The notes under the pieces: model-generated
Seen by the model: the letters and a program-made list of their open reading frames with translations, nothing else
Databases searched by the model: none
Told to the model about the DNA's origin: nothing
Assembly (NCBI GenBank): GCA_951406725.2
Contig: OX597827.1
Coordinates: 41,974,001-42,038,000, forward strand
DNA from: Octopus vulgaris
Taxonomy: Eukaryota
Length of the DNA: 64,000 nt
Reading direction: 5' to 3'
Position numbers and translations under genes: made by a program
Shown: positions 13,350 to 59,402 of the stretch, in pieces
Layout: the number at the start of each line of letters is the position of its first letter
Position numbering within the stretch: the first letter of the stretch is position 1

Positions 13350-13421
13350 GTTTAAATCTATAGAAAAACAAAGTCCAGGACAACAAGCTTAAGAGTGGCT
13401 GTGGGGTAAGTAGCTTGCTTA

Positions 13422-15404
13422 ATGCTACGAAGTTGTCGCGTTGTTTTTCGTCGCGGTGGAAGTCACGTCGTACTTGAAAAATTGAACATTTGAAGTACGA
13501 CCACAGGTAAAGCATTTGTCTTTTGGGAGCTTAGTGAAGTATGTTGTCCGTATGGTTATTATTTTTTCGAACAACGGTCTCCACTGGGTTCCAGACATTT
13601 GTTTGCCAGTGGTCGTACTAAATTTTGGTGAGAATTGTGTGTGTTTTCGGGAGGCGTGTCACTCCGAAAATTTTTTTGAAATATCTATGACTGTGTTTGT
13701 ACCCTTTCAAGTGGATTTTTACCATAAATGATAGGAGTACAGCCGGAGTTGGACGGAATACTATTTGTGCTTTGAAGGACTACTGGTTTGGATTACCAGA
13801 GTAGCAGAATTGTGTTGTGTTGCCATTTTGGATTATCTTCCTTCGCTCTTTCTTCTCCTGTCTGTCTTTCTGATCTTTTTTGAGTTTCTTTATAGACTTT
13901 CATTTGAACATTTTGATTTTTGTTTGTGAATTTTTATTTTTGTTTTAGCTATCAGCATGGCAACTGTGAAATCCGCTTTGGAGTGGCAAATTGTGGCCTC
14001 CAAAGAATGGATGAAAAATTATACGGAGAGAACGGTGGTATTAAGGACCTATTCCAGGGCCCTTGACACCATCAAGGTCTTCTCTGAGGAAGAAATTGAG
14101 GAGGAGTTGGAAGACTATCTGCTAACTGTTAGGTTTATCCGCAGGGGTGTGAAGTATGGAACTGTATGTGTACTTTTTGACGGCCCTGCGGAAGCTCGTG
14201 ATTTTGCGAGCATACCTTTGGAAGTGGTGGAAGGTAGACACTCAGTATACAGGCCGAGTGGGTAGAAGACACTATCCGTCGTGGCCTGGGTGGCGGCCTT
14301 GCCAGGCTCTTAAAAATATTGCCTGCGGTTGATTGGGTGGGGTCAAAAGCAATTTTGACCCTATGGACCCAATCAACCGATGATCTGGTTTTACCAGATT
14401 TTTTAACAATGGCCGGTTCCAGGTACCCGGTGATGGTTGAGGGACCTCTCCCCAAGTGTTACCTGTCCCTGGAATCGGGCCATATAAAGAAGAGCTGTCG
14501 TCGGGACCAGGCAAGAGTCCTGGAACAGTTAATTGAAAAGGTGTCCTCTGCTCCCCCAATGGAGGAAAAAGTCGAGGTGGAGGTAACCTCCTCGAAAACA
14601 AAGGGGAAGAAAAGAAAGAAGGTGGGCAACAACAGAGAGGGGGAGGGAGAGTCCGCCAGAGATGTCGGAGGAATTCCACCCTCCCGTCGTAAAAGGAAAA
14701 AAGAAGAGAGAAAGAAAAACGGGGCATTGCCGGCGACGGCATGTCCCGAAACCCCTTCGGTGGAATGTGTGCCACCGGAGAGGGGGAAGAAGATAACTTC
14801 GTCAGTGGGATGTGTGCCACCGAGCGAGGGAGTTGAGGCCCCTCCCAGTGAAAGTGGGGAAGAATATATATTCTTCTATCTCAGGGGAGGGGCTATTGAC
14901 GTTTCGTGGAGAATGATATGGATAGTCGAATCCTGAGGGACCCGACTTGTATTAATAGCCCAGAGTGGCCTTCACAGGTGGCTGCTCTGGTGCTGGAAAG
15001 AAAGTACTGTGATCATATAATTGACTCGTGTAAAAACGAGAATTATAGAATTCATTTTTAGAGCCCCAGATTGCGGTTGCAGAAATGCCTTCAAGTTGCA
15101 AGAAAGTTACTCGGGGACGGATTGTAGAGGTTTATCGCCTCTAATTTGTGTATAAATTGTGTTTTATAATTGTACGGACTTTTTGTCCAAATATATTGTA
15201 TTTTAAATTGTAAGAGGAGTGATAACTCTGTATATGATGTTTTTAAAGAAAAATGTCTTAGAGAGCAGAGGGTCGGCGGGCGCTTTCTGTCTTCTCCCAT
15301 GTTTATCATTTTTGTATCATAATCATTCGCCTCATCAATTTCTATCTCCAGCCCGCAAAGCCACCTTATCTATGTGCTGCATACATGGCAAATTTAATGA
15401 ATAA
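13422..15404 (+). mobile_element. ORF1-only non-LTR retroelement (HAL1/Tx1-like), copy 1
   Basis: 14-bp TSD aagtagcttgctta at 13408-13421 and 15405-15418; ~535-bp 5'UTR, one gag-like ORF, ~280-bp 3'UTR ending in aataaa; homologous to 40818-43220. Confidence 0.85.
13957..15126 (+). pseudogene. Frameshifted ORF1p-like protein with degenerate CCHC zinc knuckle
   Basis: MATVKSALEWQIV...ERTVVLRTYS; CYLSLESGHIKKSC; basic, low-complexity C-terminal half; pieces in ORFs 13957-14265 and 14319-14936. Confidence 0.75.
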
Positions 15405-15561
15405 AAGTAGCTTGCTTACCAACCTCATGGTCCTGGGTTCAGTCCCACTGCGTGGCATCTTGGGCAAGTGTCTTCTATTATAGCCTCTGGCCGACAAAAA
15501 CTTTGTGAGTGGATTTGGCAGACGAAAACGGAAAGAAGCTCGTCGTATATATGTATGTATG

Positions 15562-15627
<66 letters not shown>

Positions 15628-15860
15628 TGTGTATGTTTTTGTATGTGTTTGTGTATGTATGTGTGTATGTGTGTGTGTGTATGTTTGTGTGTCTGTGTTT
15701 GTCCCCCCACTCAACAACCGATACTGGTGTGTTTACGTCACCCGTAACTTAGCGGTTCGGCAAAAGACATCGATAGAATAAGTACTAGGCTTACAAAGAA
15801 TAAGTTCAGGGATCGATTTCCTAGCATGGCCGTAGTCAAATGACTGAAACAAGTAAAAGA

Positions 15861-15916
<56 letters not shown>

Positions 15917-16769: not shown

Positions 16770-16992
16770 TTTACCCTTTTACTTGTTTCAGTCATTTGAA
16801 TGTGGCCATGCTGGAGCACCGCCTTTAGTCGATCAAATCGACCCCAGGACTTATTCTTTGTAAGCCTAGTACTTATTCTATCGGTCTCTTTGCCGAACCG
16901 CTAAGTTACGGGGACGTAAACAAACCAGCATCGGTTGTCAAGCGATGTTGGGGGGACAAACACAGACACACAAACATACACACACACATATT

Positions 16993-17047
<55 letters not shown>

Positions 17048-17208
17048 TACGACGGGCTTCTTTCAGCTTCTGTCTACTAAATCCACTCACAAGGCTTTGG
17101 TCGGCCCGAGGCTATAGTAGAAGACATTTGCCCAAGGTGCAACGCAGTGGGACTGAAACCGGAACCGTGTGGTTCGTAAGCAAGCTACTTACCACACAGC
17201 CACTCCTA
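16770..17208 (-). mobile_element. SINE-C, full length
   Basis: matches the SINE-C consensus including the internal (TA)n. Confidence 0.85.
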
Positions 17209-17318
17209 CATGCATGTTGTGGTATGGAAGCAGGTAATATTTAACTGACGTGATCCGGTTTCGCTGTTTTCAGCATTAAAGCTTTGTGCAGTTTTTCCAA
17301 GTTCAAAACCATGGTTGG

Positions 17319-17398
<80 letters not shown>

Positions 17399-17399
17399 T

Positions 17400-18697
17400 A
17401 CAGAGGTTAGTTGAAAGATGTTTGTCACAACCGGTTGGAATTAATAACTTACAGACCAATGTCTGAAAACCCGTGCCATTTTAGCCCCAAAGAATGTGGA
17501 AGTTGCCACTTCTGGAACAGTTGCCAGGTGAGCGTCACATCTTCAATTCCATTGACACTGTATTCAACATCAATGAAGCTGAGGATTATCCAGTTGAATT
17601 CTTGAATAGTCTAACACCACCTGGCCTTCCACCTTACAGCTTCCACCTCAAGATTGGGGCGCCAGTTATGCTATTTGGAAACCTCGATCCACCAAAGCTT
17701 TGCAATGGCACACAACTTATAATAAAGAAGATGATGCTAACAGTCTTTGAGACAACAATTTTGACTGGTAAACCAAGCAGTGAGCCTGTATACATTCCTA
17801 GAATTCCGCTTATTCCCTCGGATATGCCTTTCCAGTACAAGCGCCTGCAATTCCCGTTGAAACAGCTTTGCAATGGGTATTAACAAGTCCCAGGGGCAGC
17901 CCTTGTATGTGGTAGGTCTGAACCTTGCAGAACCAGTTTTCTCCCATGGCTAACTTTATGTGCGATGCTCAAGAGTAGGCAATCCTAACCATTTCTTTAT
18001 TTATACCCCACAAGGAAAGACCAAAAATGTTGTTTATCAATAAGCTCTGTAGACTTTATAAGATTCACCAAATCATCAGGTATTTATCATTTAACTGTAA
18101 TATCTGTAAGAGTTTAAATATATTGATAATCAACATGTCATTTTATTTTTAAATCTATATATAAATTTATTTGTATGTCTACAGTAAAACTAAAACTCAG
18201 TCTGTTTCTACATTCATTGTAAATCTAAATCAACACTAGCGCCCCTAAGGCTTATATTCTCTGGGAACGCGCAAAGCCCTTTTCAAAGTTATTTACTCTG
18301 AATTGTTACTATTTAATATCTGGTTAGCCTGTTATTACGTTACATGCCTCACGATTTTGGTATACATACCTTATTGATATTTCTTCCTAAGTTCTGTATA
18401 CTCTGGGTATGCATTAAAGCTCTTTTCGGGGCTACTTTATTTCAATTCTTACTATCGGGTAAGTAATTTAATGTTATTATGTAATTGACTTCACGATTTG
18501 GGCATTCATAATTTATTGGGATTTCCTAAAAACAAGATCCTATATAAGACAGTTCGGTATTATCTGTAAATGCACAAAAATCGTTTTAAGGGCCACATAT
18601 TTTGTATTGTTGTTATTTGATTAGCGAAACGATTATGAGAACAAAACCAAGGGATAGGCACCTCTTTTTTCCGGGAATTACCGGGTTCGTCAGCTAA
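17400..18697 (+). mobile_element. Helitron 3' portion
   Basis: helicase remnant followed by a terminal GC hairpin and degenerate CTRR end ccgggaattaccgggttcgtcagctaa|t at 18671-18697. Confidence 0.7.
17460..18052 (+). pseudogene. Helitron PIF1-family helicase C-terminal fragment
   Basis: RAILAPKN, YPVEFLNSLTPPGLPP, NLDPPKLCNGT, IPRIPLIPSDMPFQYKRLQFP, frameshift, INKSQGQ, PVFSHG*LYV..SRV, TKNVVY. Confidence 0.92.
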
Positions 18698-40446: not shown

Positions 40447-40953
40447 TTGTTTACACATAAGTATATACTCTTTACTCTTTTACTTGTTTCAGGCATGTGA
40501 CTATGTCCATGCTGCAGCACCGTTTTTAGTCGAGCAAATCGACTCCAGGACTTATTCTTTGTAAGCCTAGTACTTATACCATCGGTCACTTTTGCCGAAC
40601 TGCTAAGTTACGGGGACTTAAACACACCAGCATCGGTTGTCAAGCGATGTTGGGGGGACAAACATAGACACACACAAACACACACATATATATATACGAC
40701 GGGCTTCTTTCAGTTTCCGTCTACCAAATCCACTCACAAGGCTTTGGTCGTCCCGAGGCTATAGTGTCACACAGTGGGACTGAACCCGGAACCATGTGGT
40801 TCATAAGCAAGCTACTTTATGCCATAAAATTTGCCTTTACGGCATTACAAAGAGTAGCTTGCGGGCTGGACAGAAACATTAATGAAAAAAAACGTCCGCC
40901 GATTTTTCGCTTCTCTAATACATTATTCTTCTTTTAAAAAATAAAATGAGGTA

Positions 40954-41342
40954 TAGGCGCAGGAGTGGCTGTGTGGTAAGTAGCTTGCTAACCAACCACA
41001 TGGTTCCGGGTTCAGTCCCACTGCGTGGTATCTTGGGCAAGTGTCTTCTGCTATAGCTCCGGGCCGACCAATGCCTTGTGAGTGGATTTGGTAGACGGAA
41101 ACTGAAAGAAGCCTGTCGTATATATGTATATATATAAGTTTGTGTGTCTGTGTTTGCCCCCCTAGCATTGCTTGACAACCGATGCTGGTGTGTTTACGTC
41201 TTCGTCACCTGGCGGTTCGGCAAATGAGACCGATAGAATAAGTACTGGGCTTACAAAGAATAAGTCCCGGGGTCGATTTGATCGACTAAAGGCGGTGCTC
41301 CATCATGGCCGCAGTCAAATGACTGAAACAAGTAAAAGAGTA
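40954..41342 (+). mobile_element. SINE-C, full length, nested in the copy-2 3'UTR
   Basis: near-consensus head to tail; flanks rejoin into a sequence homologous to the copy-1 3'UTR. Confidence 0.88.
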
Positions 41343-41399
41343 TTAAACCTCTTACTTTGGTTTATTACAAATTTTCCTTTTGTCTTAAAAAAGAACGCA

Positions 41400-42660
41400 C
41401 AACAATGAGGCAATAAACCTTTTAGCCGGACTGAGACACCAAGTCTCTTCAATCATCCCTATCAATTTTCTTGCCGCCTTAAGGCAATCTCTCAGCCGAA
41501 AGTCGGGGCACCAAAAGATATAATTGTAATCTTCCTTCGAACAGGACTCCACTATTCAAAGGAACTCTCTTTCTTTTACCACCAGCGCCGCCACCTGCGA
41601 CGGCCAATGCTGCTGATCAGTACAGGCCGAGATCATTAGGTCCTGACCATCAAGATAGCTCTCAACAGAGTTGTCAACAACCTCTCCCCTAAAATAGAAT
41701 ACCACATATTCTTTACTTTCACTGGGAGGGGCCACAGCTCCCTCTGTTGGTGACACGATTCAAACCGAAGAGGCCTCAGAACATTCCGACAGTACACTGC
41801 ATACCTCCGGCACTGTTCCATTCTTTTTTATCTTTGGTGCGGGAGAGGTTGGCTCCTTCGCCATAACGGCAGGAACCTCGCTTCCTCCCGCAACCCCGGG
41901 ATCCCTCGGAGAGCAACCATTGTTTCTCCCCTTATTCCTTTTTCTTCCCTTTTTTCGAGCGAGGTCACACTCTCCTCCCATCTCTCCTTCCGGAGGAGGG
42001 TAGGGGTTCTTCCACAACTAACTGCTCCAGGAGCCTGATCTGGTCCTTGGGACAGTTCTTCTTAATGTGGCCGGGCTCCAGGCACTGATGACACTGGGTG
42101 AGGGCGTCCCTCAAGAATCACTGGATACCTGGACCCGGCCATCCTCAAAAAATCTGGGAACACCAGATCATCGGTTGATTGGGTCCACAGGGTCAAAACT
42201 GCCTTTGACCCCACCCAATTAGCCGCAGGCATCATTTAACATTCAAGACCTTGGCTCCGCTGTCATCCAGACCCCGGCGGATAGTATCCTCTATCCACTT
42301 GGGCTTTATTCCGGATGGCAGCTCACACATCCAAGCTCTCGTCAATTTCCTCCCATGATATGTGGGCAGAAACAGAATTTCCTCCCCTTCCAGAGACTGG
42401 CTTGCGTTTTTGCGAGTCTGCCCCTCAGGAGTAACAAATAGCAGCCACACTGCTGCATATTTGACACCCCTTGTAATAAACTTGATGGTTGGCAGGTATT
42501 CTGCCAACTCCTTCTCAATATCTACTTGAAAGAACACAGTGATGGTGTCGAAGGTTTTGGAATATGTCCTCAACACCACCGTTCTCTCATTAAGGTCCTT
42601 TACCCACTGATTGGGGGGCATAATTTCCCACTCCAAGACAGTGTTTTTATTTTTTGCTAT
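41400..42660 (-). pseudogene. Disrupted ORF1p-like protein with intact CCHC zinc knuckle
   Basis: start ATG>ATA at 42660; LEWEIM...ERTVVLRTYS...WIEDTIRRGL; CHQCLEPGHIKKNC (CX2CX4HX4C) at ~42052-42093; stops and frameshifts. Confidence 0.8.
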
Positions 42661-43279
42661 GCTTTGCAAAAAAAAAAAAAAAACGCAGGAAAATGTTCAA
42701 CAAAAAAGTTCGAAATATTCAAATAAAAGTCCGAAGAAACACAACGAAAGAACAGAAAGACAGAGCAGAGAAAAGGACGAAGGAAGACATTTCCAGCAGG
42801 GCAACAGAATTCCGCCACTTAGATCCGCAAATAATCCACAGGTAATCCTCCAGAATATTGCTTCACACAGCTACTCCAGTTCAATGTAGTAGCAAAAAAA
42901 AAATTCCTTCACGAATGGGTCGAATTTTTATAAACTTTTCAAAGTTTGGTAGCGAGACACGCCAACCAAAACAAAACAATTATCATCGCTAAGTGAGTTA
43001 CCGAGCGCGACTGCAGCAGACAAACGTTCGAGACCCAGTGGGGATTTCTTATATGAAAAAAGGAAAAACAATGTCATACAAGAAATTCCCCAATAAGTCC
43101 TTAAAAAAAAAGTGCGTACCTTGCAATCACACCTCTTCAACAGTTCTTCGATTCAAAACGGCCATCAACGCACGTCTTGACTGTTCAATCCGATAAGCAA
43201 CTAACAAACACGCATGCGCGTAAGTGAGCTACTTACCACGCAGTCACTCCTACGCCTATATGCGTACATTTATATATTA

Positions 43280-57940: not shown

Positions 57941-58437
57941 AAAATTTCTGCAACTTTGGAGCTCTGAGCTGGTAACGCCATAATAACTTTCTCTGTTATA
58001 GTCAATGTGACAATCACACATCACATACGTTTCTTCCAAGCACTGATATACGCAGTGGAAGTGAGCTGGAATGCTAAAACTTAGGTCAATCTGTGCCAAG
58101 CCCCTTCATTCTACATGCTTCCGCTTCGTTACTACGGCAACAGTCCAGATACTTATTGATTAGAACTTGTATACAGTTTGTGTATCAAATAGCTAACTTA
58201 AGGCGATGGCCTCATGGAGCTAATAAGCGGACAGCTTTATTCTTATTTTTATAAGAATGCCATATTAGTATGGCGATAACTATTATTTTCCGGGAACGCT
58301 GCCGCTGTTCTCTTTTAGAGAGACTTAGTAATTTTAATATTTCTATTATTGAAAACAAGTGGATGTATTCCACCGAAACTAGGTAAATAAAACCATCGAA
58401 CAGAGATTGTCAGAAGCGACACCTACTGGCTGGCTAC

Positions 58438-58479
58438 GCTGCATTGAAAAGGGGCAATACCCCGAAACGCGTCTGTAGC
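58438..58479 (+). ncRNA. Minimal type I hammerhead ribozyme, U3-A8 variant (unit 1)
   Basis: gctgca-TTGAAAA-gggg caata cccc-GAAA-c gc g-TC-tgtagc; predicted cleavage after 58473. Confidence 0.75.
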
Positions 58480-58797
58480 TGCCGGTCAAGTACTGTGGAG
58501 CGACTGACCTCCCTTGTTCGAAGGTTATATGGATACAGTTTGTGCATCAAATAGCTAACTTAAGGCGAAGGCCTCATGGAGCTAATAAGCGGACAGCTTT
58601 ATTCTTATTTTTATAAGAATGCCATATTAGTATGGCGATAACTATTATTTTCCGGGATCGCTGCCGCTGTTCTCTTTTAGAGACTTAGTAATTTTAATAT
58701 TTCTATTATTGAAAACAAGTGGATGTATTCCACCGAAACTAGGTAAATAAAACCATCGAACAGAGATTGTCAGAAGCGACACCTACTGGCTGGCTAC

Positions 58798-58839
58798 GCT
58801 GCATTGAAAAGGGGCAATACCCCGAAACGCGTCTGTAGC
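58798..58839 (+). ncRNA. Minimal type I hammerhead ribozyme, U3-A8 variant (unit 2)
   Basis: identical to unit 1. Confidence 0.75.
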
Positions 58840-59159
58840 AGCCGGTCAAGTAGTGTGGAGCGACTGACCTCCCTTGTTCGAAGGTTATATGGATACAGTT
58901 TGTGCATCAAATAGCTAACTTAAGGCGAAGGCCTCATGGAGCTAATAAGCGGACAGCTTTATTCTTATTTTTATAAGAATGCCATATTAGTATGGCGATA
59001 ACTATTATTTTCCGGGAACGCTGCCGCTGTTCTCTTTTAGAGAGACTTAGTAATTTTAATATTTCTATTATTGAAAACAAGTGGATGTATTCCACCGAAA
59101 CTAGGTAAATAAAACCATCGAACAGAGATTGTCAGAAGCGACACCTACTGGCTGGCTAC

Positions 59160-59201
59160 GCTGCATTGAAAAGGGGCAATACCCCGAAACGCGTCTGTAG
59201 C
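59160..59201 (+). ncRNA. Minimal type I hammerhead ribozyme, U3-A8 variant (unit 3)
   Basis: identical to unit 1. Confidence 0.75.
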
Positions 59202-59364
59202 TGCCGGTCAAGTAGTGTGGAGCGACTGACCTCCCTTGTTCGAAGGTTATATGGATACAGTTTGTGTATCAAATAGCTAACTTAAGGCGATGGCCTCATG
59301 GAGCTAATAAGCGGACAGCTTTATTCTTATTTTTATAAGAATGCCATATTAGTATGGCGATAAC

Positions 59365-59402
<38 letters not shown>

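Follow-up and report, generated by a model that had tools for sequence, protein, structure and literature searches.

Among long interspersed nuclear elements (LINEs) with a characteristic target, Dewa inserts in tRNA spacers. Sequence-specific LINEs of the Tx1 clade include Tx1L, which inserts into Tx1D; Tx1-Mar, into Mariner-N4_AMi; Keno, into U2 small nuclear RNA (snRNA); and Kibi and Koshi, into microsatellites (PMC4494074); the portions of that text available to us name DNA transposons, long terminal repeat (LTR) elements, microsatellites, satellites, U2, U5, and 5S as targets, and no short interspersed nuclear element (SINE). Like these elements, the octopus system described here combines a LINE with two open reading frames (ORFs), an apurinic/apyrimidinic endonuclease (APE), and a reverse transcriptase (RT) with a fixed 3′ junction in a multicopy sequence and with tandem insertion, and like Tx1-Mar, in the same portions of PMC4494074, it has a non-autonomous rider that shares the target (SINEU in the case of Tx1-Mar); unlike them, its target is the head of a SINE, its riders encode ORF1, and its 3′ untranslated region (UTR) holds an antisense copy of the target. 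It is a real, genome-wide, multi-family, site-specific LINE system of L1/Tx1 type, and it was noticed in 64,000 nucleotides of Octopus vulgaris DNA (contig OX597827.1 of assembly GCA_951406725.2, positions 41,974,001 to 42,038,000 of the forward strand; hereafter the window), which contain two decayed ORF1-only retroelements, copies 1 and 2, each sitting in the head of a SINE.

The riders are also reminiscent of HAL1 (half-L1), which is not known to insert with such site specificity: both are ORF1-only, whereas the octopus ORF1 has two RNA recognition motifs (RRMs) followed by a CCHC knuckle, and the octopus elements are site-specific and lack a poly(A) tail. HAL1 is a non-autonomous L1 derivative of mammals that encodes only ORF1p (PMC5753468, in the part accessible to us), and we rejected membership in HAL1 proper because ORF1 fold and Pfam matches differ; the octopus elements work like HAL1 without belonging to it. 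R1Bm and SART1Bm are, like the octopus system, APE-type and site-specific, and in both of them target-like RNA at the 3′ end or past it anneals to the nicked bottom strand (PMC7265360); unlike it, they belong to the R1 clade, target 28S rDNA and telomeres, and carry sense-strand target-like words, and an antisense copy covarying with the target is not described for them in the accessible sections of that paper. A curated repeat annotation of O. vulgaris published in 2026 lists 80 L1-Tx1 families, 13 of them recently active with 421 insertions, and reports no target preference, nesting, or ORF1-only structure (PMC13282606); the present elements may well be among these families. Neither this family nor any LINE that targets a SINE is described in the literature searched, Repbase, Dfam, and several subscription papers lying outside that search.

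The evidence for targeting is genome-wide. Thirty loci were chosen solely by likeness to the last 150 nt of window copy 1 (30 of 40 scored, from 1,217 candidates, copy 1 included), and a locus was called on target when the target followed with no more than 3 mismatches in 12 nt. By this measure 22 of the 30 tails are followed by the target, 17 of these with SINE body behind it; among the other eight, one joins SINE body across a short deletion, one agrees with the target in its first 7 nt alone, and six are off target, at look-alike words (AAGTGA, AAGCAT) or TATG repeats, with off-target L032, L049, and L051 flanked by their own duplications of about 10-20 nt. For the autonomous family described below, AAGTAGC follows 98 of 104 exact tails, and the 7 imperfect junctions retrieved, which come from the two largest contigs, all prove to be SINE as well. 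Both 22/30 and 98/104 lie above the mark of more than 20% of flanks of one type by which PMC4494074 calls a Tx1 family sequence-specific. One tail pattern alone gave 582 exact tail-target junctions against 0 for the reversed-pattern control, and random insertion at this base and in this orientation would have a probability below 2e-4 even given a million SINE copies. The copies bear the marks expected of target-primed reverse transcription (TPRT): their 3′ end is fixed, the extent of 5′ truncation varies, and there are target duplications. The target is a single bond, GGT/AAGWAGCTTGC (slash at the bond), in the tRNA-like head of an abundant CORE/Ceph-like SINE; insertions there are independent, often 5′-truncated, and also tandem, since every insertion restores the target. 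We regard the existence of targeting as virtually certain, and the proposal of an earlier note on the window, made from the sequence alone, that a retroelement lineage inserts specifically into the head of a SINE, is borne out by the tail-chosen, truncated, and tandem copies. In a run labelled as a second species, one contig crosses the 5′ junction of the autonomous element and includes 35 nt of SINE head, which hints that the arrangement occurs beyond this genome.

The alternative that there is no targeting, SINE and insert having been copied as a composite unit or by segmental duplication, draws on the window pair itself. As first reported, copy 2 (43220 down to 40818, minus strand) lies at the same SINE nucleotide as copy 1 and in the same relative orientation. 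Alignment of the two inserts yields three blocks (969 columns) of 70-74% identity, and their host SINE bodies are 75-77% alike, so that insert and host are about equally diverged, and the 5′ target copy travels with the element. The check for duplication that had been suggested for this pair thus came out only in part: homology does end at the host SINEs, the outer flanks giving no alignment outside them, but near-equal divergence of insert and host cannot separate targeting from an old duplication, and it is the genome-wide data rather than the divergence of the window pair that decide. Specifically, i) eight 5′-truncated copies (L040, L041, L043, L052, L053, L056, L057, and L060) meet an intact SINE head at seven breakpoints; ii) one subfamily is found in both T and A hosts (L040, L041), T and A being variants of target position 4; iii) unrelated subfamilies and the autonomous element stack at one bond, subfamilies with ORF1s 41-70% identical following one another head to tail, and the longest array has nine ORF1 starts from several subfamilies in the 17 kb that separate a single SINE head from a single SINE body; and iv) outer flanks are unrelated. 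The truncated and tandem copies refute the composite-unit and segmental-duplication reading, which we consider almost certainly wrong.

An autonomous element with an APE and RT ORF2, the same tail, and the same target, for which the earlier note had recommended a search, was located through the tail-plus-target pattern; a search with zf-RVT had yielded (in its 30 best and 20 extended loci) other L1/Tx1-like families with other flanks. Locus L180 is complete, reading SINE head, target copy, 5.44-kb element, target copy, SINE body, and it encodes an ORF1 of 467 amino acids (aa) and an ORF2 of about 1,130 aa in which Exo_endo_phos (PF03372), RVT_1 (PF00078), and zf-RVT (PF13966) all exceed the cut-off. 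The solved structure nearest to this ORF2 is human L1 ORF2p (E 1e-66, compared with E 6e-20 for R2), and its anatomy is that of the L1 group: an N-terminal APE, an RT, and a C-terminal CCHC-type zinc motif, with L1 nearest among solved RTs. Seven of 30 fetched tail-plus-target loci have ORF2 upstream of the shared tail. L185 represents a second T-type family that groups with L180 (support 99), and L187 is an internally deleted A-type relative; all three fall within a genome-wide L1/Tx1-like radiation (66-76% RT identity) whose other members have other flanks. An ORF1 of RRM/CCHC type rather than Transposase_22 is a Tx1-like feature, although not exclusive to Tx1, and type I ORF1 (RRM plus CCHC) is called consistent with the Tx1 clade in non-mammalian animals in the accessible part of PMC5203782. 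In the RT tree, which included no named Tx1, unnamed proteins form the sister group of the genome-specific radiation, and limpet and fish elements fall outside; a cluster look-up returned no protein named Tx1. Judging from domain anatomy, membership in the Tx1 clade is likely.

Other L1/Tx1-like families have recurring 3′ flanks of their own (L132 and L133; L135, L136, and L138; L134 and L149; L116, L128, and L139), some of which look like the 5′ ends of other repeats. The flank of L132 and L133 resembles what we take to be a Penelope-type hammerhead region. Such recurring flanks suggest a radiation of target preferences.

The ORF1-only units are 2.0-2.3 kb long, with one 400-440-aa frame and no ORF2 between ORF1 and the tail; many young subfamilies keep such frames open, and the intact sister of copy 1, P0001, has 404 aa. 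Among eight intact ORFs compared over the first 200 aligned codons, the ratio of nonsynonymous to synonymous substitution (dN/dS) is 0.11-0.25 in 27 of 28 pairs and 0.42 in one close pair. The ORF1 of these elements is under purifying selection, and because the ratio is so low we take it to be used; full-length copies have an ORF1 kept under selection and no ORF2, which makes them HAL1-like. The structural model of a young sister ORF1 (pLDDT 81) matches tandem RRM proteins (best E 5e-5, but with a TM score of about 0.3), and the CCHC knuckle follows; zf-CCHC is found just under cut-off in five of six ORF1 members, and Pfam gave nothing above cut-off for the single ORF1 P0001. A protein search with P0001 returned one relative only, an uncharacterised O. 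sinensis protein of 64% identity (P0002), annotated as gene LOC115225585 and probably an element annotated as a gene, and a profile comparison with a fish ORF1-ORF2 protein gave a weak match (probability 4.8). Against each autonomous ORF1 tested, the identity of the ORF1-only proteins lies at 23-38%; the riders are an old lineage that has just its tail and target in common with the partner. The ORF1 tree is a quick tree in which most truncated A-type copies are missed.

A further ORF1-only lineage, also on target, is represented by the L092 unit (16968-18414 of the oriented L091-L093 stretch) and by positions 1-273 of L208; its ORF1 is much more diverged and its tail is closer to the autonomous type. 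Within an array, in L110 and L148, an element from another L1/Tx1-like family has inserted immediately ahead of the target-like 5′ end with which an ORF1-only unit begins.

The autonomous 5.4-kb element and the long-lived radiation of 2-kb ORF1-only elements share a short tail as well as the bond. There is no run of more than five A residues at any of 30 unselected junctions, and AATAAA is completed only by flank bases in 130 of 142 collected junctions, the placement of the junction being ambiguous by 1-3 A. The tail contains a terminal TGCC-N5-GGCA hairpin whose pairs are nearly invariant (99.3% of 144 cells paired in 36 rows, with no compensatory change in those rows). Upstream of the hairpin, 6-10 nt of the target recur in antisense; this motif is a perfect 10 nt in copy 2 and is present in L180, L185, and L187 (shuffle p 0.02-0.035 each); pairing of an antisense motif with the flank was found in none of 12 rows from other L1/Tx1-like families (p 0.08 or more). 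Four false junctions (L080_2782, L083_2740, L148_9519, and L200_1501) were excluded from the later motif, head-tail, and junction analyses. Of 315 junctions, the first 100 listed include 89 whose motif complements the T or A variant of its target (69 TAC motifs with T and 20 TTC motifs with A, against 8 TAC with A and 3 TTC with T), an association with a Fisher p of 8e-12 when ancestry is ignored. When the final 90 nt are folded together with 16 nt of flank, the minimum-energy structure pairs motif and read-through target in 30 of 39 tails picked by hand, and in 34 of the 39 the 3′UTR binds its own target variant better than the other.

The best explanation, which we hold with moderate confidence, is that an endonuclease nick acts together with read-through RNA that pairs first with the antisense motif and then with the nicked target. 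If TPRT proceeds as in other L1-group elements, the partner's endonuclease would nick the bottom strand at TT/A opposite GGT/AAG, and its RT would prime at the nick, copying either RNA in trans. Transcription would carry on past the 3′ junction into SINE sequence; the target bases read through in this way would fold back on the 3′UTR antisense motif, closing a tail structure only in on-target copies; and they would then be passed to the nicked bottom strand as the priming site. The RNA would begin with a target copy and the finished cDNA would anneal to the top strand, a leader-based 5′ closure that would leave the 14-16-nt duplication of element type in full-length copies. The outcome would be a junction without poly(A), together with a heritable preference for the SINE variant of the parent copy.

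A simpler account, which we judge unlikely, is that the endonuclease alone sets specificity, the motif being a leftover of an old inverted capture or part of a structure bound by ORF2p, and the T/A match reflecting ancestry and whichever SINE variant was then common. Off-target sites do resemble the target near the nick, and Kojima 2015 holds, in the part of the text available, that target choice is mainly set by the endonuclease (PMC4494074); the discordant subfamily, the motif-less lineage, and the ancestry-aware test described below also fit this account. What it leaves unexplained is that the motif differs at the exact complementary base in the autonomous branch (L187 versus L180 and L185), as it does in two or more distinct ORF1-only clades, with no case in the opposite sense; that G variants of the motif, which can wobble with a T target alone, occur only with T (5 rows, including two single decayed copies); and that the junctions lack poly(A).

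The motif might instead be a guide: paired with the top DNA strand across or beside the nick, while read-through RNA occupies the bottom strand, it would let the RNA grip both strands and take part in choosing the site; we think this distinctly improbable. In three autonomous-type tails the motif continues as CA(C/T), which by eye could pair across a 2-nt bulge with the GTG that precedes the nick; 3′ read-through does not supply this context, but the 5′ leader of the RNA may. The preference of 34 of 39 3′UTRs for their own variant is as a guide would have it. The 6-10 bp available are short for strand invasion, however, and both the T-motif subfamily in A-type sites and the lineage that is on target without a motif argue against a guide.

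The 5′ junction bears on a further possibility. The earlier note described a perfect 14-bp target site duplication around copy 1, and the two copies of AAGTAGCTTGCTTA at 13408-13421 and 15405-15418 are indeed exact, but the 5′ copy is partly the element's own 5′ end. Genome-wide, identical 14-mers occur in only 21 of 67 head-to-body pairs, some of which (L172, L186) are false pairings: in 8 of the 67 the 5′ copy has C at position 9 where the 3′ copy has T, with no pair showing the reverse, the C form appearing in none of the first 100 intact SINE sites listed; position 13 often tracks the element family; and position 4 agrees on both sides in 63 of the 67, each carrying its own T or A type. 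Off-target L002 still starts with the target word, inside its own flank duplication, and truncated copies have duplications of 4-14 nt or a deletion. The 5′ target copy of full-length elements is thus partly element-encoded and follows the element family rather than the host variant, and because the 5′ duplication is partly the element's own, the RNA probably starts with a target copy that helps to close the 5′ junction. The motif could then pair with that leader and circularise the RNA for stability, translation, or full-length insertion, tracking the target by way of the leader. Full-length elements do start with a target copy of their own type, as the agreement at position 4 attests; but the leader of the copy 1 subfamily often has a C that weakens the pairing while its motif still fits the true target, and we consider circularisation very unlikely.

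We wish to stress that several observations weigh against pairing of read-through RNA with motif and nicked target, our preferred explanation. The link between the partner and trans-mobilisation of the riders is their common tail and target, ORF1 identity to the partner being 29%. When ancestry is taken into account (a tree of 95 rows with the motif left out, 17 of 112 rows dropped as too short, and L075 labelled T-motif by script and A-type by eye), there are 3 independent well-supported pairs, 2.4 of them changing the same way and 0 the opposite way, and with only 3 such pairs the sign test cannot reach significance (p 0.25-1); the autonomous branch adds one motif switch, between L187 (A) and L180 and L185 (T). 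Taken alone, 17 of the 39 3′UTRs beat dinucleotide shuffles at p 0.05, and the 39 were picked largely for having the motif. One T-motif subfamily sits in A-type SINEs, accounting for all 8 listed TAC/A rows, and the lineage of the L092 and L208 units, although on target, lacks an antisense motif in the final 230 nt. Top-strand DNA, or the 5′ leader of the same RNA, would serve the motif equally well as a pairing partner. At L173 (1443-1535) a short inverted tail duplication within a SINE head has an inverted arm that holds 10 nt of target beyond the element end, as a read-through template would give, but it is a single case, a genome-wide pattern search having found 0 others. Read-through transcripts themselves were not observed in the available runs, which are contigs whose RNA status is a guess and which cannot show RNA ends.

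A broader possibility, to which we give only a low probability, is that the aim of an APE-type LINE is partly written in its RNA, antisense motif and read-through target forming a switch that trades partners with both DNA strands. If so, site choice would be heritable and could be re-tuned by base changes as the host SINE evolves, and autonomous and ORF1-only lineages would track SINE subfamilies in step. The antisense motif and the T/A variant together offer a single-base test of RNA versus endonuclease in the choice of LINE targets, and the answer matters for site-specific gene insertion based on retrotransposons.

The host SINE has both T and A at target position 4, with A in 16 of the first 100 intact sites listed. 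Named octopus SINEs include OK and OR1. In many copies the head is followed by CCTTGGG, described as a conserved CORE/Ceph word in the accessible part of PMC5786205, a 7-nt word being weak evidence; octopus OR2 is cited as a CORE SINE in what was available of PMC4758252. The head has no Rfam tRNA match up to E 10 and no ARAGORN call in the window, and aligns loosely to tRNA-Lys and tRNA-Ala with no clear best, the A and B boxes being assigned by eye. The SINE has no similarity to the autonomous partner, and is therefore presumably moved by another LINE. Real tRNA genes are used by NeSL-1_TV, LIN15_SM, and LIN25_SM, which are discussed among the NeSL-related families (PMC4640811, in the part available) and have a restriction-like endonuclease. 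In contrast, a check whether a real tRNA gene carries the octopus target, again as the earlier note had advised, found it within 5 mismatches of the 16-nt target in 0 of 34 genes examined, a partial test that covered 9 anticodons and in which 15 genes were Lys(TTT); on this sample we rejected a tRNA gene as the target. The 15 Lys(TTT) matches among the 34 fetched tRNA-like matches (L239-L262) have eroded ends, and are perhaps a tRNA-Lys-derived repeat or many pseudogenes. The intact target is quasi-palindromic (GGTAAG, 7 nt, CTTACC, at window 13404-13422 and in every intact SINE head), and its left half looks like what we take to be a 5′ splice-donor consensus.

That the SINE serves as a safe harbour, and that insertion breaks its promoter, as originally proposed, are suppositions: the A- and B-box-like motifs end up 2-17 kb apart in occupied SINEs. 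The effect on the SINE population is probably small, since the 582 junctions of one tail pattern amount to about 1 per 100 of the 59,010 exact intact 33-nt target sites. With the promoter region of a SINE, a class of target is added to those of sequence-specific LINEs, and the system has three tiers: a SINE host, an autonomous LINE, and ORF1-only riders that form an old radiation under selection. The target is itself mobile and has datable variants, so that the genome keeps a record of a site-specific retrotransposon following a moving target, which conserved rDNA and snRNA targets cannot show. Nested units of this kind will confuse octopus repeat and gene annotation, as the ORF1 annotated as an O. 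sinensis gene illustrates.

Table 1. Features of the two SINE-nested ORF1-only elements, in window coordinates.
Feature	Position	Strand	Remarks
Copy 1, 5′ head of host SINE with A-box-like motif (13396-13406)	13393..13407	+	From sequence; most other copies preceded by a like head
Copy 1, 5′ copy of 14-nt target	13408..13421	+	AAGTAGCTTGCTTA; partly element-encoded in full-length elements
Copy 1, decayed ORF1-only non-autonomous L1/Tx1-type retroelement	13422..15404	+	1,983 bp
Copy 1, ORF1	13957..15080 (end approximate)	+	2 RRM-like domains, CCHC knuckle, low-complexity C-terminus
Copy 1, 3′UTR antisense-to-target motif	15355..15368	+	One base decayed
Copy 1, terminal TGCC-N5-GGCA hairpin	15378..15390	+	Also in autonomous partner; one base decayed here
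Copy 1, AATAAA spanning 3′ junction	15400..15405	+	From sequence; without poly(A) tract
Copy 1, 3′ copy of target	15405..15418	+	AAGTAGCTTGCTTA; from sequence
Copy 1, remaining host SINE	15419..15862	+	B-box-like motif 15436-15446, CORE/Ceph-like CTTGGG, microsatellite, tail; self-BLAST to other window copies
Copy 2, SINE head	43235..43256	-	
Copy 2, 5′ target copy	43221..43234	-	aagtagctcactta; 2 mismatches to 3′ copy
Copy 2, decayed element of a different ORF1-only subfamily	40818..43220	-	
Copy 2, antisense motif	40853..40862	-	Perfect 10-nt complement of target; AGTAGCTTGC on + at 40853
Copy 2, younger intact SINE inside 3′ part	40956..41342 (ends approximate)	+	
Copy 2, 3′ target copy	40804..40817	-	aagtagcttgctta; SINE body continues to about 40462

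The host SINE of copy 1 lacks its first few bases, and its body resumes at 15405, after the element. The 1,983-bp element does split the SINE between A- and B-box-like motifs, as described at the outset; the B-box-like ggttcagtccc was given correctly, but the A-box-like motif, quoted as tggctgtgtgg, reads tggctgtgggg, one base off. The ORF1 of copy 1 has two frame changes and its CCHC knuckle (14457-14498) has lost one Cys; by tblastn it is 72-81% identical to P0001 across three frames. The target duplication of copy 2 is imperfect, and its ORF1 is 47% identical to P0001 in amino acid sequence over residues 6-212, the nearest relative among those compared being L223, at 85%. Just inside the 5′ end of copy 2 (window 43211-43219, minus strand) is a word GCGCATG(C/T)G that recurs in the otherwise unalignable 5′UTRs of L074, L081, and L097, and resembles what is presumably an NRF1-type Pol II promoter element. 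Elsewhere in the window, at 58168-59370, lies a tandem repeat of about 362 bp whose copies are 98-99% identical.

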